64,000 nt of DNA from a virus. Lineage: Duplodnaviria > Heunggongvirae > Uroviricota > Caudoviricetes. The stretch is from the IMG/VR virus record IMGVR_UViG_3300037418_002962, positions 90,650-154,649 of that record; one strand, 5' to 3'. The notes beneath the pieces were generated by a model. The model was not told the DNA's origin. It did no database searches and was given only the letters and a program-made list of their open reading frames with translations. Below are positions 8,854-55,658 of the stretch, in pieces. Numbering within the stretch: the first letter of the stretch is position 1; each line of letters opens with the position of its first letter. The translations under genes were made by a program, and so were the position numbers.

Positions 8854-9566
8854 TGAAATCATTCAAGCAAATCTTAAAAGAACGTGAAGAAGAACTTCTA
8901 GATCCTGATAGATGGGTAGGAACTGCAAAACACAATACAGTATCTTCACATTACATTGGGCATGATTCAGTAAATCCTAATCACTGGTATAATAAACAAC
9001 ACGGTCCTGGAAGTTCTTATGACATACCTAAAAGCATAACTCCAGAAGAGGCTGAATCTCTTAATGATTATGCATGGGGTTCATGGCATATTAATCATTT
9101 TCATAGGTCAGGTGGAGAAGTTCCTAAGCATTTTAGTGGAACTAAAGGTGAAATAGAACATCACACAAAGAACTTAGATTCTGTTTTAAATAAACACAGC
9201 CTTTCAAATAACTTTCATGTCTGGAGAGGATTTGCAGAACACAAAATAGTTCCTGCATTAAATCTCAAACCGGGAGATACTTTCCATGATAAAGGATTTG
9301 TTTCTACTTCAACCAATCCTAATGTTGCTAAAGGATTTACACCATTATCTCCAGGAATTGACCGACATTTATTTCATATTAAAGTTCCTAAGGGAAGTAA
9401 AGCATTGGCAATGGAGCATGTTTCATTTGGGGCTGGTGGAGAGAATGAAGTATTACTTCCAAGAAACTCAAAGTTCCGTTACGATAGCAGGGAAGAACAT
9501 CCCGCTCCTGAAGGGTCTAAACTAATTATCCATCATGTTACGCATATCCCAGAAAGTTCCGAATGA
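8853..9566 (+). CDS. capsid-targeted ADP-ribosyltransferase paralog 5
   Basis: MKSFKQILKE; YAWGSWHINHFHRSGG, FHVWRGF, DKGFVSTST, GENEVLLPRNSKFRYDS. Confidence 0.8.
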   Translation: MKSFKQILKEREEELLDPDRWVGTAKHNTVSSHYIGHDSVNPNHWYNKQHGPGSSYDIPKSITPEEAESLNDYAWGSWHINHFHRSGGEVPKHFSGTKGEIEHHTKNLDSVLNKHSLSNNFHVWRGFAEHKIVPALNLKPGDTFHDKGFVSTSTNPNVAKGFTPLSPGIDRHLFHIKVPKGSKALAMEHVSFGAGGENEVLLPRNSKFRYDSREEHPAPEGSKLIIHHVTHIPESSE

Positions 9567-10183
9567 AAACCTACAAAGAACTGCTAGAAAAATGGATTGG
9601 TGCTCGTAGAAGTGTACAGCAAGGATCTAGGCAGTACTTGAAGAATTATGGCAAGACAAACTTTGGCACCAGAATTCATGATTATGGAAATATTTTTGAT
9701 GATGAAATAAAATCTTTACATCATTACTCTAATGAAGGATATGATTCAATTAATAGACATTTAAGACATAATTCAAAGTTCCCTGCACATCCTGCAATTC
9801 AAGAACATATTAATAATATTGATTATGCAATCCATAAACATGAAACCAAACATGATATGCATGTATATAGAAGTCTTGGATGGCATGATCCAGAAATGAA
9901 ACCAGGAGATATTTACCATGACAGAGGTTTCGTTTCTACAACATTAAATAATCATTGGGGCACAGGAACAGGACATCTCATCCATATCAAGGTTCCTAAA
10001 GGTTCCAAGGCACTTTATCTAAACCAGAGAAGTCTTTCAAAACACTTTGGAGAACAGGAAGTATTATTGCCAAGAAATGCAAAATTCCGTTATGAAGGTT
10101 CAGAGAAAGTAAAAGACAAATATAATCAGGAAGGCACTCTTCATCATATGACATATCTAGGAACACACCATGAAGACACTTAA
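9563..10183 (+). CDS. capsid-targeted ADP-ribosyltransferase paralog 6
   Basis: MKTYKELLEKWIG (closest to T4 IPIII CTS MKTYQEFIAE); YDSINRHLRHNS, MHVYRSL, DRGFVSTTL, GEQEVLLPRNAKFRYEG. Confidence 0.8.
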   Translation: MKTYKELLEKWIGARRSVQQGSRQYLKNYGKTNFGTRIHDYGNIFDDEIKSLHHYSNEGYDSINRHLRHNSKFPAHPAIQEHINNIDYAIHKHETKHDMHVYRSLGWHDPEMKPGDIYHDRGFVSTTLNNHWGTGTGHLIHIKVPKGSKALYLNQRSLSKHFGEQEVLLPRNAKFRYEGSEKVKDKYNQEGTLHHMTYLGTHHEDT

Positions 10184-10808
10184 AGAATTACTTGAAGAAA
10201 CTAAAAGGTTTGAGATAGGAAGTGAAGATCCTATGCATGATTTTTCTAATGAGGATTATCATAACTTTAAAAAATTAAATAATCCTCATCAGCACAACAG
10301 CCTTTCTAATCATGAGACAAGATATCTAGGTGATTATGCTGGTTCTGGCTATTCTGCTGTTAATGATTATCATAGAGGAATGAGGGAAAGATATTTCGAG
10401 AAAAATCCATATACAGTAAATGGTATCAAGAACAAAACAAAACATTTAGATTCTGCCATAGGCAAGCATATTACTCTATATGATGCCCATGTCTGGAGAG
10501 GTATTACGCATAAATTAAAAGCAAAGAAGGGTGATATAATTCAGGATAAAGGTTATACGTCCACAAGCTTCAGGCCAAATGCTGCAATGGCATTTCTTGA
10601 TATGGAAAATAACCTTAGACATCATCTAATTCATATAAAAATTCCTGCATATTCCAGGGCAGTTTATATGCATCATAATAATTCTTCAGAAGAACAGGAA
10701 GTTCTTTTACCAAGAGGAAGTAAATTTAAATACCTTGGGAAAGAGAAACATCCAAGATATCCTAATATTACTATACATCATCTAGAGCATATTCCAGAGG
10801 AATCATGA
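10170..10808 (+). CDS. capsid-targeted ADP-ribosyltransferase paralog 7
   Basis: MKTLKELLEE; YSAVNDYHRGM, AHVWRGI, DKGYTSTSF, EEQEVLLPRGSKFKYLG; 14-nt overlap with upstream paralog. Confidence 0.8.
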   Translation: MKTLKELLEETKRFEIGSEDPMHDFSNEDYHNFKKLNNPHQHNSLSNHETRYLGDYAGSGYSAVNDYHRGMRERYFEKNPYTVNGIKNKTKHLDSAIGKHITLYDAHVWRGITHKLKAKKGDIIQDKGYTSTSFRPNAAMAFLDMENNLRHHLIHIKIPAYSRAVYMHHNNSSEEQEVLLPRGSKFKYLGKEKHPRYPNITIHHLEHIPEES

Positions 10809-11440
10809 TTACTTTTAAAGAATTACAAGAAAAATGGTTAGGATCTTCAAAACACAAAGCACAAGGTGCAGAACCTCTATCTAATGAAGAAATGCATAAA
10901 ATTGGTAATAAACTTCATGATCCACAGGAACTATCCGATATTGAAAAAAATCATTTAAGTTATTATACTGGTCCTGGACATTTATTAGTTAATGATCATC
11001 TAAGAGGAATTCGTACTTTTTCAGATCCTGATATTCATAAAGATATCAGCCAAATTAGTAATGCCATAGGAAAACATTCTACAAAACATGACGTTCATGT
11101 ATGGAGAAGTTATCATGATATTAAAGATTTAGGTCTTAAAAAAGGCGATATTTTCCATGATAAAGGATTTGTTTCTACTTCTTTAAGAAATAATCATAGT
11201 TCTCATATTCATACTCATATTATGCACATAAAAGTTCCCAAGGGAAGCAATGCAATGTATCTGAATCAGGAAAAAACTTCTAGTTATCCAGATGAACATG
11301 AAGTACTTTTACAAAAAGGAGCAAAATTCAAATATCATGGCGCAAAAACTCATGAAGTTCCTTTTCCAGCAGATATGAGAAATCCCACAAGAACAATGAC
11401 AATTCATCGTATGACCTATCTTGGTTCTGAAGATTCATAA
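10805..11440 (+). CDS. capsid-targeted ADP-ribosyltransferase paralog 8
   Basis: MITFKELQEKWLG; HLLVNDHLRGI, VHVWRSY, DKGFVSTSL, DEHEVLLQKGAKFKYHG. Confidence 0.8.
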   Translation: MITFKELQEKWLGSSKHKAQGAEPLSNEEMHKIGNKLHDPQELSDIEKNHLSYYTGPGHLLVNDHLRGIRTFSDPDIHKDISQISNAIGKHSTKHDVHVWRSYHDIKDLGLKKGDIFHDKGFVSTSLRNNHSSHIHTHIMHIKVPKGSNAMYLNQEKTSSYPDEHEVLLQKGAKFKYHGAKTHEVPFPADMRNPTRTMTIHRMTYLGSEDS

Positions 11441-16439: not shown

Positions 16440-16976
16440 ATGCTTTCATATTATAATACTTTAGAGGAAATATGTTATTTATATTGGGTTCATTTACCTG
16501 AACATAAAGATATGTTTAATCAAGGATACATTGGTATTTCAAAAAATATAAAAGCTAGATACTCATCTCATAAAGGAAATAAATCTCATAAGTATTTAAC
16601 AGAAGCATTTAAAAATTACAAAGACAAAATCACTGTTACAACTATATTAAAAGGAACAAGAGAATATTGTTTAGAAATTGAGAATAAATTAAGACCAGAA
16701 AAAAATATTGGATGGAATGATCAAATAGGCGGGGGAGATCCGCCATCACATAAAGGTAAAGCTAAATCAGAATCATGGAAAAAATTGATGAGTGATACTA
16801 AAAAAGGAATTCCTCACCCATGGACTATAGAATCTAATAAAAATAGAATTCCATCTGCAAAAGGTAAAAAATGGTATCATGATCCTGTAACTAAATACAG
16901 TAGTTATTTTAACCCAGGAGAACAGCCTGAAAATTGGGTATTAGGAAGATTTTCTAGAAAGAGAGTTATATTATAA
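16440..16976 (+). mobile_element. GIY-YIG homing endonuclease (Seg-like) between baseplate and fibre genes
   Basis: YLYWVHLPEH...GYIGISKNIKARYSSH (GIY...YIG...R..H); basic NUMOD-like C-terminus. Confidence 0.6.
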
Positions 16977-34653: not shown

Positions 34654-34661
34654 TATAAATA
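34654..34661 (+). promoter_or_regulatory. T4-type late promoter TATAAATA upstream of the neck gene
   Basis: Exact TATAAATA 30 nt upstream of ATG 34691. Confidence 0.55.
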
Positions 34662-34690: not shown

Positions 34691-35434
34691 ATGGCTGTTC
34701 CAATTACAAGAGAAGGCTTCAAACTTAATGCTTTAAGGCGTTTAGGTTGGCCCACAATAAAGGTGAATTTAGACGATGACACGATTGAAGATCGTATTGA
34801 TGAGGCTCTAGATTATTTCTATCAGTTTGCCTTTGATGGCACAGAACAGGTTTATTATACAGTCCAACTAACTCCTACAGATATAACCAATAGATATCTC
34901 ACAATTCCTACGAGTATTCAAGGTGTTTCAAGAGCACTTCTGCCAAATACCGGATTAATTAATGGTGAAGATATGTTCAATATCCGTTATCAGATTGCCA
35001 TGAACGATATCTATTCAATTTCTTCAATTTCAATGGTTCCATACTTTATGGTCATGGAACAGCTTTCACTAATCGAAGAAGTCCTTATAGGAACAGATCC
35101 AATCCGTTTTAGCAGACACACAGGAAGATTATATATCGATACAGATTGGGCATTTCTTTCTGCAGGCAATTTCGTAATCATTGAGGCATGGCAACAGATT
35201 GATGCAGATGCAAATCCTTCAATCTGGTCTGATAGATGGTTACAAAAATATGCAACTGCACTAATCAAGAAGAATTGGGCAGATATCTTGATTAAATTTC
35301 CGAATATGCAACTTCCAGGTGGAATTACCTTTAATGGTCAAACAATCCTACAAGAAGCTAAGGAAGAAATTTCAAAGTTAGAAAAGGAAATGCAGGATAC
35401 CTACTCACTTCCACCACAATCATTCTTATTCTAA
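34691..35434 (+). CDS. gp13: neck protein, gp13-like
   Basis: LNALRRLGWPTIKVNLDDDTIEDRIDEALDYF resembles remembered T4 gp13 ([28 protein letters not shown]); position before gp14/gp15. Confidence 0.5.
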   Translation: MAVPITREGFKLNALRRLGWPTIKVNLDDDTIEDRIDEALDYFYQFAFDGTEQVYYTVQLTPTDITNRYLTIPTSIQGVSRALLPNTGLINGEDMFNIRYQIAMNDIYSISSISMVPYFMVMEQLSLIEEVLIGTDPIRFSRHTGRLYIDTDWAFLSAGNFVIIEAWQQIDADANPSIWSDRWLQKYATALIKKNWADILIKFPNMQLPGGITFNGQTILQEAKEEISKLEKEMQDTYSLPPQSFLF

Positions 35435-35443
35435 GGATTTATT

Positions 35444-36160
35444 TTGCCTAATCACTATTTCGACAATTTCAATTACCAGCCTGAACAGGATCTTGTTGAA
35501 GATCTTATCATAGAATCAATTGGTATCTATGGTATTGAGTGTTATTATATTCCAAGAGTTCTAAGAAAATTTGACCAACTCTATGGTGAAGATCCAATTT
35601 CTACTTACGAAAAGGCATATCTTATCGATATGTATATCAGGAATGTTGAAGGCTTTTCAGGCCAGGGAGATTTCTTGTCCAAGTTCTATTCCCAGATTAG
35701 AGATTCAATTACCTTCACGGTTGCTAAGAGAACCTTCAATGAGCTTATCGGAACTCCAGAAAATTTCACCAGAGCCAGGGAAGGGGATTTAGTCTGGTTC
35801 CCATTAAACAAGAAATTATTCATTATCAAGTTTGTTGAGCATGAGGCAATATTTTATCAATTCGGGAGCTTACAGACTTATGATCTTAAGTGTGATTTGT
35901 TTGAATATTCTAATGAGAAATTTAATACAGGTGTGCCAGAAATCGATATCTTCCAACAGGAATTCTCATTTGCCATGACAGATGATGCAATTGAAACTCA
36001 GGATAATAGTATTCTTACTACTCAGGATGGGCAACCATTGGTATCAAATGATTTTGATTTTGGTAAACAGACTGGAGAAACCTTTGAGGATAATGATACC
36101 ATTACTACCCAAGCTAGTGACATTATTGATTTCAGTGAATCGAACCCCTTCTCGGAATAA
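35444..36160 (+). CDS. gp14: neck protein, gp14-like (acidic C-terminus)
   Basis: 238 aa; synteny between gp13-like and gp15. Confidence 0.4.
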   Translation: MPNHYFDNFNYQPEQDLVEDLIIESIGIYGIECYYIPRVLRKFDQLYGEDPISTYEKAYLIDMYIRNVEGFSGQGDFLSKFYSQIRDSITFTVAKRTFNELIGTPENFTRAREGDLVWFPLNKKLFIIKFVEHEAIFYQFGSLQTYDLKCDLFEYSNEKFNTGVPEIDIFQQEFSFAMTDDAIETQDNSILTTQDGQPLVSNDFDFGKQTGETFEDNDTITTQASDIIDFSESNPFSE

Positions 36161-36162
36161 AC

Positions 36163-36846
36163 ATGAAATCATTTAAACAGTTATTTGAAAATCATGAAGA
36201 ATGGCTAGGAACTGCAAATCCTAAAGATCTAGAAACAGGCGAAGGAATATTTGCCTCTGATGGACCACCACATCATATAGTTTCTGCTTCACAGAATTTA
36301 CATCAAAGACATAATTTTACTCATGATGAATTTACTAGTGTTAATGCATATATTGGAGCAAATAACCTACCAGAAAATAATATGTTTAAAGGATATAGAG
36401 CAATTAATGGACATTTAAGAGGAACTTTACATTCAGATGCAACTCTTCCTTCATTTCATCTAAAAAATCTAGATAAAAATCTTTTAGATAAACATATCAG
36501 TAATTTAGATTCTGCTATTGCTAAACATACAACAGAACATCCAATTCATTTATGGAGAGGATTTCATAGAGATGCTAGAGTTCAGGATTTAACACCTGGA
36601 GATATTTTTCATGATAAGGGATTTGTCTCTACGACAACAGATCCTAGTTATGCAAAACAAATGAGGCATGTAGTAGCTCATATTAAAGTCCCGAAAGGAT
36701 CTAAAGCGTTAGCTGTTAACAAGTATCATTTTGATAATGATTGGGAACATGAAGTATTACTTCCAAGAAACTCCAAGTTTCGCTACGAAGGTTATACAGA
36801 TCATGGAACAACAAGGATTCATCATCTAGAACATATTCCAGAGTAA
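36163..36846 (+). CDS. capsid-targeted ADP-ribosyltransferase paralog 9
   Basis: MKSFKQLFENHEEWLGTANP; YRAINGHLRGT, IHLWRGF, DKGFVSTTT, WEHEVLLPRNSKFRYEG. Confidence 0.8.
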   Translation: MKSFKQLFENHEEWLGTANPKDLETGEGIFASDGPPHHIVSASQNLHQRHNFTHDEFTSVNAYIGANNLPENNMFKGYRAINGHLRGTLHSDATLPSFHLKNLDKNLLDKHISNLDSAIAKHTTEHPIHLWRGFHRDARVQDLTPGDIFHDKGFVSTTTDPSYAKQMRHVVAHIKVPKGSKALAVNKYHFDNDWEHEVLLPRNSKFRYEGYTDHGTTRIHHLEHIPE

Positions 36847-37160
36847 TCCTTAGAGGCAACCTACGGTTGATCCCTTACGGGATAACTTTTAGGTTTTGTT
36901 AACGATAAAAGGAATTTAAAATTATAAAGTACTTCATGAAGACACTTCATTATACACACATTAAAAAACCTGTCAAGTACTTTTGTCATAAATATTTAAG
37001 AATTCAAGTAAAAACTTGTGGATAACTTTGAGAGGCAAATAAAATATTCGGGCATACTTTCTTCTATTCATCTATACGCAACTATACGATAGCATTTGGA
37101 AGTTTATTTTCCAATATTTACATTAATCGAACAGATACCTCTAGTGATACTGTCCAGACA

Positions 37161-37868
37161 ATGGAAGTTCCTTGTAACTACGGTCCAAAAGAAAAATTTC
37201 TTGCCAGACTTTTATCTGATCCAGATCTTAAAAGACCAGCAATGGTTTTGCCAAGAATTGCTTTTGAGATTACTTCAATTCAATACGATTCTTCTAGAAA
37301 ATTAATCACAACTAATAAGGTTGTTAGGAACAATCCTAAAGGTGGTACTTCTACCTTATATTCTCCTGTACCTTATAATTTTAATTTCAATCTCTATGTC
37401 ATGACTAAGAACATTGAAGATGGCACTAGAATTATTGAGCAAATCCTTCCATATTTTACTCCAACCTACACAGTGACAGTTAAAGTTGTTCCACAATTAA
37501 ATATTACCCATGATGTTCCAATTACTTTAAATTCTGTAGAGAATATGGACTCTTATGATGGTTCTTATGAGGAAAGAAGAGCTATTATCTGGACTCTTGG
37601 GTTTACCTTGCAGGGTTGGTTGTATGGACCTACTACAAATAATGTAACGAACATTATCAAAAAAGTTACCATCAATTTCTTTGCACCTACTACAAATACT
37701 GCAATAGAAGGAATTGGAATTACATCAGTAAGCGAGGGGTTCATCATGACACCAGGGCAAGATGCAAACGGAAATCCCACACAAAATTCTTCAATAGCAA
37801 TAAATTATAAGGATGTTCAGCCCGATACTCCTTATGCGTTTATTTACGATTTTTTTAGTAATGATTAA
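37161..37868 (+). CDS. gp15: tail sheath stabiliser / tail completion protein gp15 (coordinates from first ATG; conserved N-terminus continues upstream to 37032 with no canonical start)
   Basis: RIIEQILPYFTPTY, AMVLPRIAFEITSIQYD, IWTLGFTLQGWLYGP match remembered T4 gp15 (QIVEQILPYFQPHF, ETILPRINLHLVDFSYN, EWSLTFEVNGWMYPP). Confidence 0.8.
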   Translation: MEVPCNYGPKEKFLARLLSDPDLKRPAMVLPRIAFEITSIQYDSSRKLITTNKVVRNNPKGGTSTLYSPVPYNFNFNLYVMTKNIEDGTRIIEQILPYFTPTYTVTVKVVPQLNITHDVPITLNSVENMDSYDGSYEERRAIIWTLGFTLQGWLYGPTTNNVTNIIKKVTINFFAPTTNTAIEGIGITSVSEGFIMTPGQDANGNPTQNSSIAINYKDVQPDTPYAFIYDFFSND

Positions 37869-37870
37869 TC

Positions 37871-38497
37871 ATGAAGACATTTAAAGAATTACTTAAAGAA
37901 AGCAATGAACATTGGGTTGGAACTACAAATCCTGATATTAATACTGTCAATATTCCTCAAAGTAACAATCATAATTATAGAGAAAATTTCCTATTAGATA
38001 AAAATGACCATTATAATCTTAATGACCATGAGAGAGATGCGGTAGAAGATTATGTGTCATCTGCTGCTTTAATAAATTCTCATCATAGGCATAATGATGT
38101 TCCTGAAAAATGGCATAATTTATTAAATGAGAGAACAAAGCATCTGGATTCTGCTCTAAATAAAAATAGAACAAGACATAATGTCCATCTCTGGAGAGGT
38201 ATTATAAGAGATGATAGTAAAAAAATATTACAGGATCTTAATCCAGGAGATACTTTCCACGATAAAGGCTATGTTTCTACAAGTTTTTCTCCAGATGCAG
38301 CAGGTGGTTTTGGTTCTCATCTTTTTCATATAAAAGTTCCTAAAGGGAGCAGAGCGTTAGTTCCATCTTATCATGGTTTGGGTAAAGCACATGAGCAGGA
38401 AGTAATATTACCGAGAAATTCTAAATTTAGATATTTAAATTCTGAAAAAATTAATGGAACTAACATACATCATTTAGAACATATACCAGAGGATTAA
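37871..38497 (+). CDS. capsid-targeted ADP-ribosyltransferase paralog 10
   Basis: MKTFKELLKESNEHWVGTTNP; ALINSHHRHND, VHLWRGI, DKGYVSTSF, HEQEVILPRNSKFRYLN. Confidence 0.8.
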   Translation: MKTFKELLKESNEHWVGTTNPDINTVNIPQSNNHNYRENFLLDKNDHYNLNDHERDAVEDYVSSAALINSHHRHNDVPEKWHNLLNERTKHLDSALNKNRTRHNVHLWRGIIRDDSKKILQDLNPGDTFHDKGYVSTSFSPDAAGGFGSHLFHIKVPKGSRALVPSYHGLGKAHEQEVILPRNSKFRYLNSEKINGTNIHHLEHIPED

Positions 38498-38501
38498 AAT
38501 T

Positions 38502-40656
<2,155 letters not shown>

Positions 40657-40663
40657 ATAATGG

Positions 40664-41293
40664 ATGAACAATCCATATACTTATATCTATTTTGATCCTT
40701 CTAGAGATTTTGAACCCTTTTATGTTGGTAAAGGGAACGGTAGAAGATACAAAAGACATCTAACTAGAAAAGATATGCATCCAATGACTCACAGAATTCA
40801 GAAAATGCTGAAAGAGAATATTGAGCCTATAATTAAAATTATAGAATGTTCTACAGATGAAAATGCTCTGAATTTAGAATCTGCTTTAATTAGAATATTT
40901 GGCAGAAAAGATTTAAATAAGGGTCCATTGCTAAATCTAACTGATGGTGGTGAAAATCCTCCAAGGTTGTTTGGAGAAGACAATGGATTTTATGGTAAAA
41001 ATCATAGTGATGAAACAAAGGATAAGCTTAGAAAAGCTAGATTAGGAAAAAAGCTCTCTAAAGAAGTCGTGGAAAAAATGGCGTTGGGCCATAGAGGAAT
41101 TCCATGTTCAGAAGCAGCAATAGCAAGTACAGCCAAGAGATTTCTTATTATTTTCCCAGATGGGCATGAAGAAGAAATTATAAACATGAGGAAATTCTGC
41201 CGAGAAAACGATTTAAGTTATAGAAATATGAAAAGAGTTTTGAGAGGCGAAAGGAAACAACATAAAGGATTTAAAGCAATAAAACTAAGTTAA
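40664..41293 (+). mobile_element. GIY-YIG homing endonuclease (Seg-like) between terminase and sheath genes
   Basis: YTYIYFDPSRDFEPFYVGKGNGRRYKRH (GIY-YIG + R..H); NUMOD3-like GKNHSDETKDKLRKARLGKK; C-terminal IIFPDGHEEEIINMRKFCRENDL...KGFKAIK DNA-binding module. Confidence 0.8.
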
Positions 41294-45959: not shown

Positions 45960-46163
45960 ATGGCAGAATCACAGGTATTTACATCAGCAGATATTGTTAA
46001 AGCAGCAGCAGAAAATGATGCACTAAATGCAAAATCAGCTTTTGGTAACATTATGTTAGATAAAATTAGAGATGCAATTGCTGGAAAAAGAGAAGAAATG
46101 GCTAGTACATTGCTGACAACTCCAGAAAATAATACAGAAGTAGAGGTTACAGATAATGCCTAA
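45960..46163 (+). CDS. small prohead core protein, gp67-like (67 aa; MAESQVF start with AAGGAG RBS)
   Basis: Position between portal and protease as in T4; the track start at 45939 lacks an RBS. Confidence 0.4.
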   Translation: MAESQVFTSADIVKAAAENDALNAKSAFGNIMLDKIRDAIAGKREEMASTLLTTPENNTEVEVTDNA

Positions 46164-47592
46164 TCCAATTTTATCAAAAATTCTAGAACTATATGTTCCT
46201 AAGACTCAAGGAGAAAAAGAGTTTTGGAACCTTCATGTTATTAAGAAAGTAAATAATGATCCAAAGACAAATATGGACAGTACTTTCCAGGCCACAAATA
46301 TTGCTGTTGATACCTCTAGACCAGCAGATAAAAAAGTAAAGTCTGACTATGATACTTTATCTGGAAATGAAGATGATAAAGTTGCAGAAGATTTTTCGGG
46401 AGTTCTTGGACTTTCGGAAGCAGCATGGGTAGTTTCCAAGCCTCTTGATACTATTTCTGGAGTTAAAGAAGGTCCAATTGTTGTAGTAAATATGAAACAT
46501 GGACAGAAGAAAATTGGGCTAGTTCGTAGACCAAATCAGCTAGGTCCAAATAAAGATAACAAGAAGGCTGGCGATTATAGCAAGACTTTCGTAATTAAAC
46601 ATAAACCAACAGGAAGAAGTTTTACTTTATATACTGCTGCTGGTACTCCAAGAATTCGTGCATATGGGCATGATGACAAGGATCTTACACAGAAACTAAA
46701 AGATTACTTAGAAGAAAATCTTAGCTATGAGTATGACATTACTCATGGAGTTTTTCTAGGCGAAGAATTCACTCCAAATAAAGTCTATCATATCGGTAAA
46801 GATGATGATAGAGGATATTTTATTCCTAAGTCAAAACAAAAAAATGGCAAGTGGGCTGGACTGCAATTTGATGGTGGTGCAGCAGGAAGATCTGCAAAGA
46901 AACCAACAAAGTATGCTTATGATCCTCATCCTAGTTGGAAAGAAACACCAGACCATGAAATTCCAAAACATATAAAGCCATATATTAATGAAGAATTTGA
47001 GAATGATGGTGATCATGATGCAGATGACGATGAAGTATCATTTGATGTTCCAACCTTTATTAAGGCTCTAGAATGGGCCAGAGAAGATGCAAATAAAGAT
47101 AGCAATCTTCATATTTTTGCTGAAAATGCAGTAAAGCTAAACAGATGTGCCAAAATGGAAGATTGGGATAAGCTTGTTGAAGGAACTAAAGGTGCTGATG
47201 AACCTGTAGACGAAGAATTTTATGAACTTCCAGTATTTGAACAGATTGAACTAAATGCTGATTCTGGACAGGACTTTGACATTACTTTCAAGAATGGAGA
47301 TATTCTAACAATTTCTCCAGATAAAGCCAAGTCAATTCTTGAAAACAAAGAAATTAATCAGGAATTACTTTCAGAATCAATCGAAACATTTAACGAAGAA
47401 GCTGGCCTAAGGCTTATTGATACTCATGAAGAAGGCAATAAGAAAGCCAAGGTCTACAAAAATTATCATTGGGGAGAATATCAGGTTAAGTTCCATACCG
47501 ATGGAAAACATCACAAGGATGCTGATTATCATACAGATGATGAGGATGATGCCCATGGTACTGCAAAAAATTGGTTAAGGAATAGTAAATAA
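46156..47592 (+). CDS. large acidic prohead core / internal protein (478 aa)
   Basis: Position in the head-morphogenesis cassette; very acidic C-terminal half (DGDHDADDDE...); N-terminal KILELYVPK with LxE-type sites. Confidence 0.4.
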   Translation: MPNPILSKILELYVPKTQGEKEFWNLHVIKKVNNDPKTNMDSTFQATNIAVDTSRPADKKVKSDYDTLSGNEDDKVAEDFSGVLGLSEAAWVVSKPLDTISGVKEGPIVVVNMKHGQKKIGLVRRPNQLGPNKDNKKAGDYSKTFVIKHKPTGRSFTLYTAAGTPRIRAYGHDDKDLTQKLKDYLEENLSYEYDITHGVFLGEEFTPNKVYHIGKDDDRGYFIPKSKQKNGKWAGLQFDGGAAGRSAKKPTKYAYDPHPSWKETPDHEIPKHIKPYINEEFENDGDHDADDDEVSFDVPTFIKALEWAREDANKDSNLHIFAENAVKLNRCAKMEDWDKLVEGTKGADEPVDEEFYELPVFEQIELNADSGQDFDITFKNGDILTISPDKAKSILENKEINQELLSESIETFNEEAGLRLIDTHEEGNKKAKVYKNYHWGEYQVKFHTDGKHHKDADYHTDDEDDAHGTAKNWLRNSK

Positions 47593-48288: not shown

Positions 48289-48939
48289 ATGAAGCTACTC
48301 AGAGATTACTTAACAGAAGATATTGAATACTTAACAGAAGATAAAGAGGGCGTAAAAAATCTTTATATTACTGGTCCATTCATGATGGCTGAAAAGATTA
48401 ACAGGAATGGCAGAGCTTATCCATTATCTATTCTTGAAAGAGAAGTAGCAAGATATATCAAGGAAAAAGTCAATGAAAATATGGCATGGGGGGAGCTAAA
48501 TCATCCACAAGGCCCACAAATTAATTTCGATAGAGTTTCCCATAGAATTGTTGAATTAAAACAAGATGGAAATTGCTTCTATGGCAAGGCACTTATTACT
48601 AATACTCCATGCGGAAATATTGTCAAGGGATTAATTGAATCTGGTGGGAAAGTTGGTGTTTCTTCAAGAGGAATGGGTTCTCTAAAACCAATGAGAGAAG
48701 GCCATAATGAAGTACAGGACGATTATTTTCTAGCAACTGCTGCAGATGTTGTTGCAGATCCTTCAATGCACACTGCATTTGTTAATGGCATCATGGAAGA
48801 AAAAGAATGGATATTCGAATCTGGTGTGTGGAAAGAAGCAGAGCTAGTTGCTGCTAAACAGGAAATTCATAGAGTTTCTAAAAGTCAGCTAGAAGAAGCC
48901 AAATTGTCACTATTCAAGAAATTCCTAGGGAGTCTGTAA
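48289..48939 (+). CDS. gp21: prohead core protein and protease gp21
   Basis: LYITGPFMMAEKINRNGRAYP...WGELNHPQGPQINFDRVSHRIVEL...VGVSSRGMGSL matches remembered T4 gp21 (IYISGKFMEAEIKNRNGRIYP...TGELEHPESPSINTERISHVITKL...LGVSSRALGSV). Confidence 0.9.
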   Translation: MKLLRDYLTEDIEYLTEDKEGVKNLYITGPFMMAEKINRNGRAYPLSILEREVARYIKEKVNENMAWGELNHPQGPQINFDRVSHRIVELKQDGNCFYGKALITNTPCGNIVKGLIESGGKVGVSSRGMGSLKPMREGHNEVQDDYFLATAADVVADPSMHTAFVNGIMEEKEWIFESGVWKEAELVAAKQEIHRVSKSQLEEAKLSLFKKFLGSL

Positions 48940-52010: not shown

Positions 52011-52040
52011 AAAAAGGGGAACTTCGGTTCCCCTTTTTAT
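52011..52040. terminator. bidirectional intrinsic terminator between convergent genes
   Basis: AAAAAGGGGAAC-TTCG-GTTCCCCTTTTTATTT: 7-bp GC-rich stem, tetraloop, A-run 5' and T-run 3'. Confidence 0.75.
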
Positions 52041-53428
52041 TTGAGGATAAATCTGTAAGTTCCACAGTTCCAGATCCTTATAGCTCCTAAGGTATCCATA
52101 ATATCCTTTTCACTCATCTCTTTATTAAATTCCTTTAGCACTCTCTTTGTAAATTGAGTTCTGTTTACTCTTCTGTAGCAATTATCAACCAAATAAGAGT
52201 AGGCAGGAGGATTGATTTTTTCTAATAAAAATCCATTTTTCACATAAACATTTCCATTAGAATAACTAATATCAGCATAAGAGACAATAAAACCTTTATG
52301 TTCCTTTCTGAAGTTAGATAGTAACTTTGAAAATCCTCCTACAATATTACAGTTCATTTTGACCGAATATCTAACCAATTCCCAATCAACTTTTTTGTTA
52401 AAACGGGATTTCGAAAAGGACATTAGTGCTACCAGTTCATTTTTAAAGAACAATCCATTATAATATTTTGCCTTTGAAAATCCTTGAATATGATTTTCAT
52501 CAAGAAATTTTCTGGCATCATTATATTCTACAGAATTAACAACACAGTTTCTCGCAAATATCTTTCTGGAAGATTTTCCTAATTTATTAGAAATCATTGA
52601 TTTTACGATATCTTGTTTATATCTCCAGTCATCTTCCCAAATATGATAAAGCATAATGCCTTTATCCAGACAGGCTTTGGTTTTGTTGTAATGGTCTAAT
52701 TTACCTTTCCATATTTCAGAATGATAGTAAAGACCATTAAATTCATAAGCAATGTTTTTTGAAGGAATGAAAATGTCCAGTTCCCCTTTTATTAAATTCC
52801 TTACTGAGTGAGTTGCATCAGGACAAATCTCTTTTATGAACTCAAAGACTTCTTGCTCTGCCTTTGATCTTTTGTTGAATTTCCGAGGATAGCTATTAGA
52901 ATCTTTGGCAGGTATTCCATGCTTTTTAATAAAGATCTGAACGGTTGATAGAGAGGTTCCTAGCTTTTCAGCTATCTGTCTCATATCCATACCCTGATAC
53001 ATTTCTTCAATTTTAGATTTATCTTCCAAGATGAGTTTTACTTTATAGTCAGATTCGTTATATCTAACTTTAGGAAGATCATGAAGTTTGATATACTTTC
53101 TCACAGGAACAGGAGAAATCCCAAGTTCATCTGCAATAGTCTCTACAGATTTCTTTAGAGTGATCCTATGGTTGTAAAGCCAATCGTAATCCTTTAAGAG
53201 AATTTCTTTGTCTTTAGCAATAGTTTTATTGGCCCTTGAGCATTCAGGACCACAATACCGTGCAAACCCATTTCCAGGATACGCCTTATCATAGGTGGTA
53301 GGCTTTCCACATACACATTTCGGTATCTTATTTACTGAATCGATATTATTTGCTGTACAGTAAATAAGGAAAGGTTTTGGTAGCTTACATTTATAAATTT
53401 CAAAAAGAAACTCTAACTCAATGCTCAT
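52037..53428 (-). mobile_element. multidomain freestanding endonuclease (zinc finger + two HTH + Vsr/DUF559-like PD-(D/E)xK nuclease + unknown C-terminal domain), probable homing endonuclease
   Basis: CVCGKP...CGPEC zinc-binding; IADELGISPVPVRKYI and IAEKLGTSLSTVQIFI HTH-like; ELDIFIPSKNIAYEFNGLYYH = Vsr/DUF559 D..K.A.E..G..H motif. Confidence 0.5.
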
Positions 53429-55563: not shown

Positions 55564-55640
55564 TTGGTGGGCCAGAGGAGACTCGAACTCCTAAACATTT
55601 GATTTTGAGTCAAATTGCTATACCAATTCGCATACTGGCC
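55564..55640 (-). tRNA. tRNA, apparent anticodon CAA (nominally Leu/UUG) but class-I structure (5-nt variable loop)
   Basis: Minus-strand GGGCCAG-TA-TGCG..GG..GCA-A-TTTGA-CTCAAAA-TCAAA-TGTTT-AGGAG-TTCGAGT-CTCCT-CTGGCCC-ACCA: 7-bp acceptor stem, GTTCGAGTC T-loop, U33, A37, encoded CCA. Confidence 0.75.
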
Positions 55641-55658
55641 CTTTAAATTGTATTTAAT

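Follow-up and report, generated by a model that had tools for sequence, protein, structure and literature searches.

Leader-tagged ADP-ribosyltransferase genes in variable slots between the late genes of an environmental T4-like phage, with a proposed role as packaged effectors

The ADP-ribosyltransferase genes flanking gp15

We analysed a 64,000-nucleotide stretch of DNA, referred to here as the window (positions 90,650 to 154,649 of IMG/VR record IMGVR_UViG_3300037418_002962), which belongs to a T4-like myovirus with a G+C content of about 35% (34.6% in the window). Our subject is two genes for ADP-ribosyltransferases (ARTs), ART9 and ART10, which flank gp15 within the late gene block gp13-gp14-gp15-gp16-gp17 (Table 1). 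Both open reading frames (ORFs) lie where the original prediction had placed them as paralogs 9 and 10 of an ART family; the neighbouring genes were identified with Pfam and PHROGs. ART9 starts 2 nt past the gp14 stop codon, while ART10 starts 2 nt past that of gp15 and ends 4 nt before gp16. As had also been claimed, the ARTs interrupt an otherwise conserved block, since gp13 to gp17 are contiguous in several relatives (L003, L004, L006 and L013-L015). All of the relatives compared in this work are metagenomic.

ART9 (227 residues) and ART10 (208 residues) are 41% identical (E 2e-41) and match the Pfam family ADPrib_exo_Tox (PF03496) with E values of 2.5e-18 and 4.1e-21, respectively (66.6 and 75.7 bits; cut-off 23.4). 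A tblastn search found ten members of the ART family in the window, in agreement with the paralog numbers 9 and 10. The catalytic residues R132, S156-T157 and E195-x-E197 (ART9 numbering) are invariant in all nine full-length copies in the window, and the arginine, the serine and the second glutamate are invariant across 31 family members. The AlphaFold2 model of ART10 (mean pLDDT 87.6) consists of a helix at residues 4-11, a low-confidence linker and a confident ART core from about residue 50. Its top Foldseek matches were C3bot1 and Vip2 (probability 1.00), and Certhrax and Vis were also matched; against toxins of the C3/Vip2 type the E values were about 2e-12, with TM scores of 0.6-0.7 and identities of 20-25%, and a PDB sequence search agreed with these structural matches. 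Judging from sequence and modelled fold, ART9 and ART10 are almost certainly intact mono-ADP-ribosyltransferases of the C3/Vip2 type (R-S-E class). Because they carry the E-x-E motif, what is known of this clade suggests that arginine is the acceptor. The loop just before E-x-E is the most variable part of the ART alignment. This loop contributes to substrate choice in related toxins, and its variability fits paralogs with different targets. The ARTs are also rich in histidine (8.5-10% of residues), and their tails are conserved, reading H-H-L-T-H-I-P-E or H-H-L-T-Y-L-G.

The family extends well beyond the window. The DNA directly upstream, which belongs to the same genome, is represented by loci L017 (1-20609) and L018 (1-12602), window position 1 corresponding to position 12323 of L018. 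These two loci encode 19 further ART genes, including one run of eight, interleaved with gp53, gp5, a homologue of Acb1 and two minus-strand endonucleases. With these loci and the window joined into 87.7 kb, a profile search found 28 ART ORFs, all on the plus strand, which gives a total of at least 28 for this phage, and 26 of the 28 lie inside the baseplate module gp53-gp5-gp25-gp6-gp7. Copies within the genome are 35-49% identical and form a star-like tree. A public protein catalogue also holds giant proteins of up to 4,350 residues (P0149-P0160 and P0161) with up to 12 tandem ART domains that match the family profile; P0150, for example, has 11 matched stretches in 2,156 residues and P0161 has four in 801 residues. 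These giant proteins are fused ART arrays, not separate genes.

The N-terminal leader

Every ART paralog starts with a near-identical decapeptide, M-K-[T/S]-F-K-[E/Q]-L-L-x-E (consensus M-K-T/S-F-K-E/Q-L-L-E/K-E). Besides the leaders of ART9 and ART10 (Table 1), the variants MKSFREILEE, MKSFKNYLKE, MQSFKILLEK, MKSFKQILKE, MKTYKELLEK, MKTLKELLEE and MITFKELQEK occur. The capsid targeting sequence (CTS) of T4 is MKTYQEFIAE (PMC8442874), and studies of CTS mutants have assigned residues 4 and 7 to targeting and residues 8 and 10 to cleavage by gp21 (PMC9026906). In the ART9 and ART10 leaders, as in the T4 CTS, residues 4 and 7 are hydrophobic or aromatic. Across a set of 50 leader genes, drawn from this phage and from relatives, the counts at residues 1 to 5 were M 50, K 38, T 23 or S 13, F 42 or Y 3, and K 42, and those at residues 6 to 10 were E 19 or Q 18, L 23 or F 11, L 26 or I 16, E 25 or K 13, and E 27; at most positions the T4 residue or a conservative replacement of it is the commonest or second commonest. 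A hydrophobic-x-Glu sequence ending at residue 9 or 10 is present in 46 of the 50 leaders. The predicted processing residues are L8 and E10 in ART10 and F8, E9 and N10 in ART9, where L7-F8-E9 is a possible site. The leader codons vary synonymously (TCA, AGC or TCC for serine; TTA, CTT, CTA or CTG for leucine), so that conservation acts on the peptide and not on the DNA. We interpret the leader as the counterpart of the T4 CTS, to which it is similar at the residues with a mapped role in targeting or cleavage.

The leader is not merely a feature of the ART family. One further ORF in the window, for a protein with LRV/HEAT repeats, matches the ART-leader pattern, where 0.035 matches are expected per shuffled window. 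Homologues of Acb1 carry the leader in this phage (L017, 8010-8501) and in relative L007 (3941-4432), and their Pfam domain is complete from residue 15, which makes the 14-residue leader an add-on. The Acb1 leader of this phage, MKTFKHFIAE, is identical to the T4 CTS at seven of ten positions, and the sequence suggests a leader-tagged anti-CBASS phosphodiesterase that might enter with the DNA. Relative L002 has the leader on a DUF6321 protein and on three unknown proteins, and relative L012 has it on an unknown 191-residue protein in the slot occupied here by ART10 (gp15|gp16). A reading of this last protein as ParB-like, based on a DHHRL motif, was dropped after Pfam, PHROGs and PDB sequence searches of it came back blank. 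The leader is thus very probably a portable module common to unrelated proteins of the late gene cluster.

The window phage also encodes the gp21-type prohead protease (Table 1), whose N-terminus, MKLLRDYLTE, fits a loosened leader pattern. This leader-like start recalls T4, for which it has been suggested that gp21 carries an N-terminal propeptide with a CTS-like role (PMC9026906). The phage encodes gp22, gp67 and gp23 as well, and the maturation site of its gp23, M-T-E|Q, aligns with L-T-E|A of T4.

Leader genes in other viral contigs

We searched IMG/VR with a degenerate DNA pattern for the leader alone and obtained at least 120 loci (L019-L138). The counts that follow are among the matches listed. 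Nearly all of the leader matches examined (81 of 82) open ORFs of at least 30 residues, and none of the 82 encodes an ART. Homologues of window proteins are encoded by 48 of the 120 listed loci, about 40 of which have T4-type late genes. The leader ORFs recur in the same slots, namely gp16|gp17, gp13|gp14, upstream of gp13 and downstream of gp23, and several phages have two or three tandem leader ORFs between gp16 and gp17. The cargo is very diverse; for one family of it, a homologue in cyanophage S-CREM2 is annotated as an S-adenosyl-L-methionine hydrolase. One recurrent leader family is represented by homologues in cultured T4-like cyanophages; its homologue in Prochlorococcus phage P-TIM68 (AIR93461) starts with MKTYKEFIQD and is very basic, like the internal proteins of T4. 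No paper naming these leader sequences was found in a literature search that was poor in subscription journals.

Slots between the late genes

The gp13-gp17 block (6.6 kb) gave no match by megablast against 50,697 phage genomes, which leaves no close cultured relative for comparison, and a scan of metagenome contigs for gp15 added two distant loci and nothing more. In the closest relative, L012, gp15 is 66% identical (BLASTP). Where the window has ART9, between gp14 and gp15, L012 has a GIY-YIG homing endonuclease on the minus strand, and the leader-tagged 191-residue protein in its gp15|gp16 slot is unrelated to ART10. At the DNA level, the window and L012 resemble each other through the last part of gp15 and the leader that follows, and no further than about codon 10.

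Turnover of family members, which had been proposed, is borne out by a split ART in L007. The order of orthologous ARTs also differs between two related phages. At L007 2768-3201 a decayed ART consists of a 44-residue leader ORF (MIRFRAFLTEKVEKVLGTEE...) followed by an 80-residue ORF that matches only the C-terminal third of the ART domain. Orthologous ART pairs of the window and L009 are 53% and 60% identical and their order is swapped, and the LRV/HEAT gene of L009 is placed differently relative to the orthologous ARTs.

The original prediction had looked to two observations to settle the nature of the insertions. The first was common junction sequences at the ART flanks. None is present in non-coding DNA; what the ART genes share are their two coding ends, the leader (5') and the conserved ...HHLTHIPE (3'). 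The second was the same arrangement with unrelated genes in relatives, as a sign of an ancient and fixed layout. In one sense this is what is seen, as the slots do recur with unrelated leader-tagged cargo. We read the slots as cassette sites like those of internal proteins, neither a fixed ancient arrangement nor a mobile element.

The spacer after ART9 and transcription signals

The non-coding stretch after ART9 had been given as 300 nt, a figure that falls to about 197 nt (36847-37043) because gp15 apparently starts earlier. When gp15 is read from the ATG at 37161, the Pfam match to T4-gp15_tss begins only at profile position 34. The 39 codons upstream of this ATG continue its reading frame without a stop, and their translation aligns position by position with the gp15 N-termini of five relatives. 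The extension contains no ATG, GTG or TTG. We consider the likely start to be the ATA at 37044, which lies 8 nt after GAGG (37032-37035). At the homologous position L012 (1014-1161) has an ATT after AGGAG, and a second, independent assembly of the phage has an identical sequence at the gp15 start. The apparent non-AUG start is the reason why gene callers cut gp15 to 235 residues in the window and 231 in L012. In more distant relatives, gp15 starts on an ATG.

The spacer had also been said to contain a decayed ART gene start. A 12-nt copy of the start of a leader gene is indeed present, but it comprises only four codons. This sequence, ATGAAGACACTT (36936-36947, plus strand), encodes M-K-T-L and opens a 29-codon ORF without ART similarity. 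It is identical to the paralog at 10170 over the initial 12 nt of that gene (13 nt counting the preceding C) and is the sole plus-strand site of its kind in the window outside real leader genes; when the spacer was shuffled, 25 of 20,000 shuffles yielded a prefix of at least 12 nt from any of 27 leader-gene starts (P about 0.001). No other resemblance to ARTs was found in the spacer by tblastn at E values up to 10. It is plausible that ATGAAGACACTT is the relic of a leader-bearing gene, though not demonstrably of an ART, given that the remainder of the spacer is without ART similarity.

Two adjacent 5-bp hairpins followed by a T-rich tract lie just after ART9 (Table 1) and may weakly be taken as the terminator-like end of a gp13-gp14-ART9 unit. 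They scored below the threshold of an intrinsic-terminator scan, the RNA fold of the spacer was no more stable than that of shuffled sequences (z = -0.79), and Rfam had no match in the spacer. The spacer also contains, on the minus strand, a perfect sigma-70 consensus promoter facing leftward, antisense to ART9. No other site in the 64-kb window matches at 12/12, and there is no gene on the minus strand beyond this promoter. As a speculation, it could be the relic of the promoter of a homing endonuclease like that of L012; compared by eye only, the spacers of L012 and the window have no evident sequence similarity. Among promoter-like sites scoring at least 11/12, 10 of 11 are on the minus strand, several of them within plus-strand late genes.

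Motifs of the form YATAAATA, which we take from the T4 consensus to be putative late promoters, lie upstream of gp13, gp15 and most other late genes and upstream of none of the ARTs. The total number of these motifs is not above chance and only their placement is informative: 12 of the 15 plus-strand motifs are intergenic, most of them 0-50 nt upstream of late genes. The motifs before gp13 and gp15, together with the ARTs abutting their upstream genes, lead us to propose two late units, in which TATAAATA probably starts a gp13-gp14-ART9 transcript and CATAAATA a gp15-ART10-gp16-gp17 transcript.

Table 1. Coordinates of features in and around the gp13-gp17 region and of related genes elsewhere in the window.
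Feature	Position	Strand	Evidence or remark
ART paralog 1, C-terminal part	2-370	+	gene start upstream of window
Three tandem ART paralogs after gp25	803-1516, 1513-2256, 2256-2927	+	
LRV/HEAT-repeat protein	4799-6313	+	504 aa; leader MKSFSQLLEA; no ART similarity
Four tandem ART paralogs between gp6 and gp7	8853-9566, 9563-10183, 10170-10808, 10805-11440	+	
Late-promoter-like motif TATAAATA	34654-34661	+	29 nt upstream of gp13
gp13 (neck / head-tail adaptor)	34691-35434	+	PHROG 211 E 4e-37; Pfam Phage_T4_gp13 precomputed on identical product
gp14 (neck protein)	35444-36160	+	Pfam T4_neck-protein E 6.8e-36
ART9	36163-36846	+	Pfam ADPrib_exo_Tox
ART9 leader MKSFKQLFEN	36163-36192	+	codons 1-10
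Two adjacent 5-bp hairpins, CAACC-TAC-GGTTG and ATCCC-TTAC-GGGAT, then T-rich tract	36857-36900	+	read from sequence, present in fold
Perfect sigma-70 consensus promoter, TTGACA-16 nt-TATAAT	36949-36976	-	leftward, antisense to ART9
Late-promoter-like motif CATAAATA	36987-36994	+	49 nt upstream of inferred gp15 start
gp15 (tail sheath stabiliser / tail terminator)	37044-37868 (inferred start)	+	Pfam T4-gp15_tss E 3e-62
ART10	37871-38497	+	Pfam ADPrib_exo_Tox
ART10 leader MKTFKELLKE	37871-37900	+	codons 1-10
gp16 (small terminase subunit)	38502-38870	+	PHROG 445 E 9e-20
gp17 (large terminase subunit)	38872-40656	+	Pfam Terminase_6N, Terminase_6C
GIY-YIG homing endonuclease	40664-41293	+	
gp18	from 41324	+	
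gp21-type prohead protease (Peptidase_S77)	48289-48939	+	PHROG 207 E 5e-71; T4 gp21 structure 5JBL E 2e-20

Proposed role and alternatives

By analogy with T4, we consider it probable that the leader mediates packaging into the head, cleavage and injection and, to the same degree, that the ARTs would be late-made, head-packaged and injected effectors housed in exchangeable "leader cassette" slots. The ARTs would be read through from the late operons gp13-gp14-ART9 and gp15-ART10-gp16-gp17. The leader would then anchor the enzyme on the scaffolding core of the prohead during its assembly, where the gp21-type protease would cut it off after Glu 9 or 10 (hydrophobic-x-Glu). The mature enzyme would stay in the head, be ejected with the DNA and, as T4 Alt does, ADP-ribosylate host proteins before phage gene expression. 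The gaps between late structural genes would act as slots where leader-tagged cargo can come and go, be exchanged and diverge. From similarity to T4 and from genomic context we infer that transcription is late, that the ARTs are packaged, cleaved and injected, that they are specific for arginine and that their targets lie in the host. With somewhat less assurance, we would extend the proposal to environmental T4-like phages in general, which may load and inject any protein bearing a portable decapeptide of the wider CTS family. The ARTs of this lineage (at least 28), its Acb1 and other tagged proteins would then be an injected arsenal, comparable in breadth to a secretion-system repertoire and encoded in slots between late genes.

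Several points weigh against this proposal. The match of the leader pattern to the ARTs is circular, since the pattern was built from them, and only the non-ART matches are independent. The ART9 leader, with Glu 9 and Asn 10, has a less canonical cleavage site. Mature ART9 and ART10 would be near neutral (pI about 6.7) proteins of 22-25 kDa, whereas the internal proteins of T4 are small and basic. T-even phages have their internal-protein genes at just two loci (PMC2839356), and the leader genes here are scattered among baseplate, neck and terminase genes. The presence of 26 of the 28 ARTs in the baseplate module could equally suggest a link with the tail, and the short amphipathic start M-K-T-F-K-E-L could serve some other shared purpose.

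The best placed of the alternatives, although we judge it unlikely, is that the ARTs are made late and never packaged, acting in the producing cell through late modification of host or phage proteins, exclusion or an abortive response, with the N-terminus being a family feature or an element of translation initiation. Well-translated genes often have AAA or AAG as their second codon and an AT-rich 5' end, and the ARTs lack a strong Shine-Dalgarno sequence and appear to be translationally coupled. T4 itself has small unpackaged ARTs, ModA and ModB (PMC9503650). However, the leader has been added in front of complete domains of unrelated proteins, as in Acb1, and the peptide is kept despite synonymous changes. 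It also matches the T4 CTS at functionally mapped positions, resembles the N-terminus of the prohead protease and is concentrated beside T4-type late genes in many phages.

Of closely similar standing, and likewise improbable in our view, is the idea that the ARTs are mobile or recently acquired, brought into the core block through a mobile element, co-conversion with a homing endonuclease or horizontal transfer. Slot occupancy does differ among relatives, homing endonucleases are abundant nearby (four in the window, and two flanking the gp15-gp16 region in L012), and the spacer holds a plausible relic of a leader-gene start. Against it stand the G+C content of the ARTs (31-37%, with ART9 and ART10 at 31-33%), which is close to that of the window, and the lack of any non-self BLASTP match above 46% identity among 5.8 billion proteins (best 43% for ART9 and 46% for ART10); among sequenced phages, ART10 had no match above 30% identity. 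The star-like tree, with its 35-49% identity within the genome, points the same way. ART9 and ART10 lack their own promoters and are flanked by neither direct nor inverted repeats, the junctions are 2-4 nt from the neighbouring genes, and no endonuclease adjoins either ART in this phage, the nearest being 2.2 kb away. From the native G+C content, the star-like tree and identities of at most 46%, we take the ARTs to be old, fast-diverging cassettes in variable slots rather than recent mobile cargo. What survives of the original description as mobile or recently acquired cargo is therefore the variability of the slots and the turnover of the family; recent acquisition, recent duplication or transfer, and a mobile element are not supported.

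Considerably less credible is a leader that directs proteins to the tail or baseplate, which would make the ARTs tail-associated effectors loosely like the cargo of contractile injection systems. The location of 26 of the 28 ARTs in the gp53-gp5-gp25-gp6-gp7 module speaks for it, as does the equal placement in L007-L009. Nevertheless, the closest known analogue of the leader is the head-targeting CTS, it is the prohead protease that has a leader-like N-terminus, and the leader ORFs of other T4-like phages cluster among head and packaging genes, after gp23 and between gp16 and gp17. We know of no tail-loading signal of this kind in T4. Finally, the notion that the ARTs are toxins against eukaryotes (grazers, or an animal or protist host of the bacterium), freed at lysis in the manner of the C3, Vip2 and iota toxins, which modify actin or Rho, has very little to commend it: the closest solved structures (C3bot, Vip2, Certhrax and CDTa) all act on eukaryotic targets, but the identity is only 20-25%, signal peptides and cell-binding components are absent, and the finding of 28 copies in one T4-like genome of lytic type, whose leader also occurs on the anti-bacterial-immunity protein Acb1, points to bacterial targets.

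If the leader does work as a capsid-targeting signal, a late-cluster gene starting with M-K-T/S-F-K-E/Q-hydrophobic-aliphatic-x-E would flag injected "first-strike" proteins in thousands of uncultivated T4-like phages, and many ORFans would become candidate anti-defence effectors. The 28 tagged ARTs would form by far the largest ART repertoire that we have found reported, and ADP-ribosylation of many host targets, or of variant targets in many hosts, would be a major pre-emptive strategy. A tagged Acb1 would deliver anti-CBASS activity before phage gene expression. The leader could also extend the T4 protein-delivery toolbox past coliphages.

Other genes of the window

The large terminase has its best matches in cyanophages and one pelagiphage, with identities of at most about 46%. 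A 243,684-bp JGI contig carries the window DNA too, as do Logan assemblies of SRR35144446. Four homing-endonuclease-like genes (GIY-YIG/NUMOD and HNH) lie in or beside the late structural region, at 6310-7020 (minus strand), 16440-16976 (plus), 40664-41293 (plus) and 52037-53428 (minus), and in relatives such genes occupy different junctions. Across the whole window, Rfam identified a single tRNA (RF00005, 61.9 bits) at 55568-55641 on the minus strand, within a block of minus-strand genes. Two long ORFs of the late cluster also stand out: one of 600 residues (2968-4770), between ARTs and the LRV/HEAT gene, has no family match whatever, and one of 478 residues (46156-47592), between gp67 and gp21, matches a PHROG of unknown function through its C-terminal 54 residues only.

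Comparison with known systems

A functional precedent is T4 Alt, a head-packaged, gp21-processed and injected ART (PMC9026906). Like Alt, the ARTs described here belong to the R-S-E class, and a late, packaged, gp21-trimmed and injected role is proposed for them. On the other hand, Alt is about three times larger (about 680 residues) and single-copy, and its propeptide has 7 residues and is not a CTS of the internal-protein type (PMC9026906). ART9 and ART10 match the Alt family (PHROG 802) with E values of 8e-10 and 1e-4 in the catalytic core only, and no T4-like phages were among the tblastn matches of the ARTs. At 208-227 residues, and with this weak core-only similarity, they are not orthologues of T4 Alt.

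The ARTs also resemble T4 ModA and ModB in being small single-domain enzymes of the R-S-E class encoded by adjacent paralogs. The Mod genes of T4 lie outside the late structural operons, and their products are unpackaged. Searches gave no significant match to ModA or ModB except for one weak PHROG (phrog_832, E 1e-4).

The internal proteins of T4 are IPI, IPII and IPIII, with more than 30 variants in T-even phages. As with these proteins, a leader of roughly ten residues (MK-T-aromatic-x-E-hydrophobic-aliphatic-x-E) is found here on unrelated proteins, a gp21-type protease is present in the genome, and the cargo is highly variable among related phages, suggesting a role in an arms race. T4 internal proteins share the leader alone and are anti-defence proteins (PMC12373910, PMC3012670). 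The differences are that the cargo here consists of 23-28 kDa enzymes (ARTs and Acb1) and a 56-kDa repeat protein rather than small basic inhibitors; that the genes are dispersed, without promoters of their own and in far higher copy number, whereas those of T4 occupy two dedicated loci (PMC2839356); and that the phage is only distantly related to T4, its large terminase being 45% identical to those of cyanophages and a pelagiphage. We propose that the ARTs work like internal proteins and, because of their neutral pI, their size and their dispersed genes, are not members of the classical set.

With the C3 exoenzyme, Vip2 and iota toxins (PF03496) the ARTs share the fold and the catalytic motifs. 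Unlike these toxins, they are phage-encoded, come without secretion or translocation components and have an extra N-terminal leader followed by a conserved W-L-G-T motif.

The shuffling of accessory genes by PeSLs or at internal-protein loci in T4-like phages (Arbiol 2010; Comeau 2014; Repoila 1994) likewise swaps genes at defined points between conserved ones, and the spacer after ART9 has stem-loops and a perfect sigma-70 promoter, as PeSLs do. In contrast, PeSLs are repeated promoter-plus-stem-loop units that flank early genes in hyperplastic regions and are reported to be rare in structural regions. The shared junction here is a coding leader with neighbouring core genes, and the lone sigma-70 promoter faces the opposite way.

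Phage ARTs are often encoded beside head genes and have been predicted to be packaged, and in a 2022 survey Bacillus phage G stood out for its ARTs, of which it has at least 10 (PMC9503650). What sets the present case apart is a leader of the internal-protein type on ARTs, Acb1 and other enzymes, the dispersal of the genes that carry it, their very large copy number, and their occurrence in distant environmental T4-like phages.

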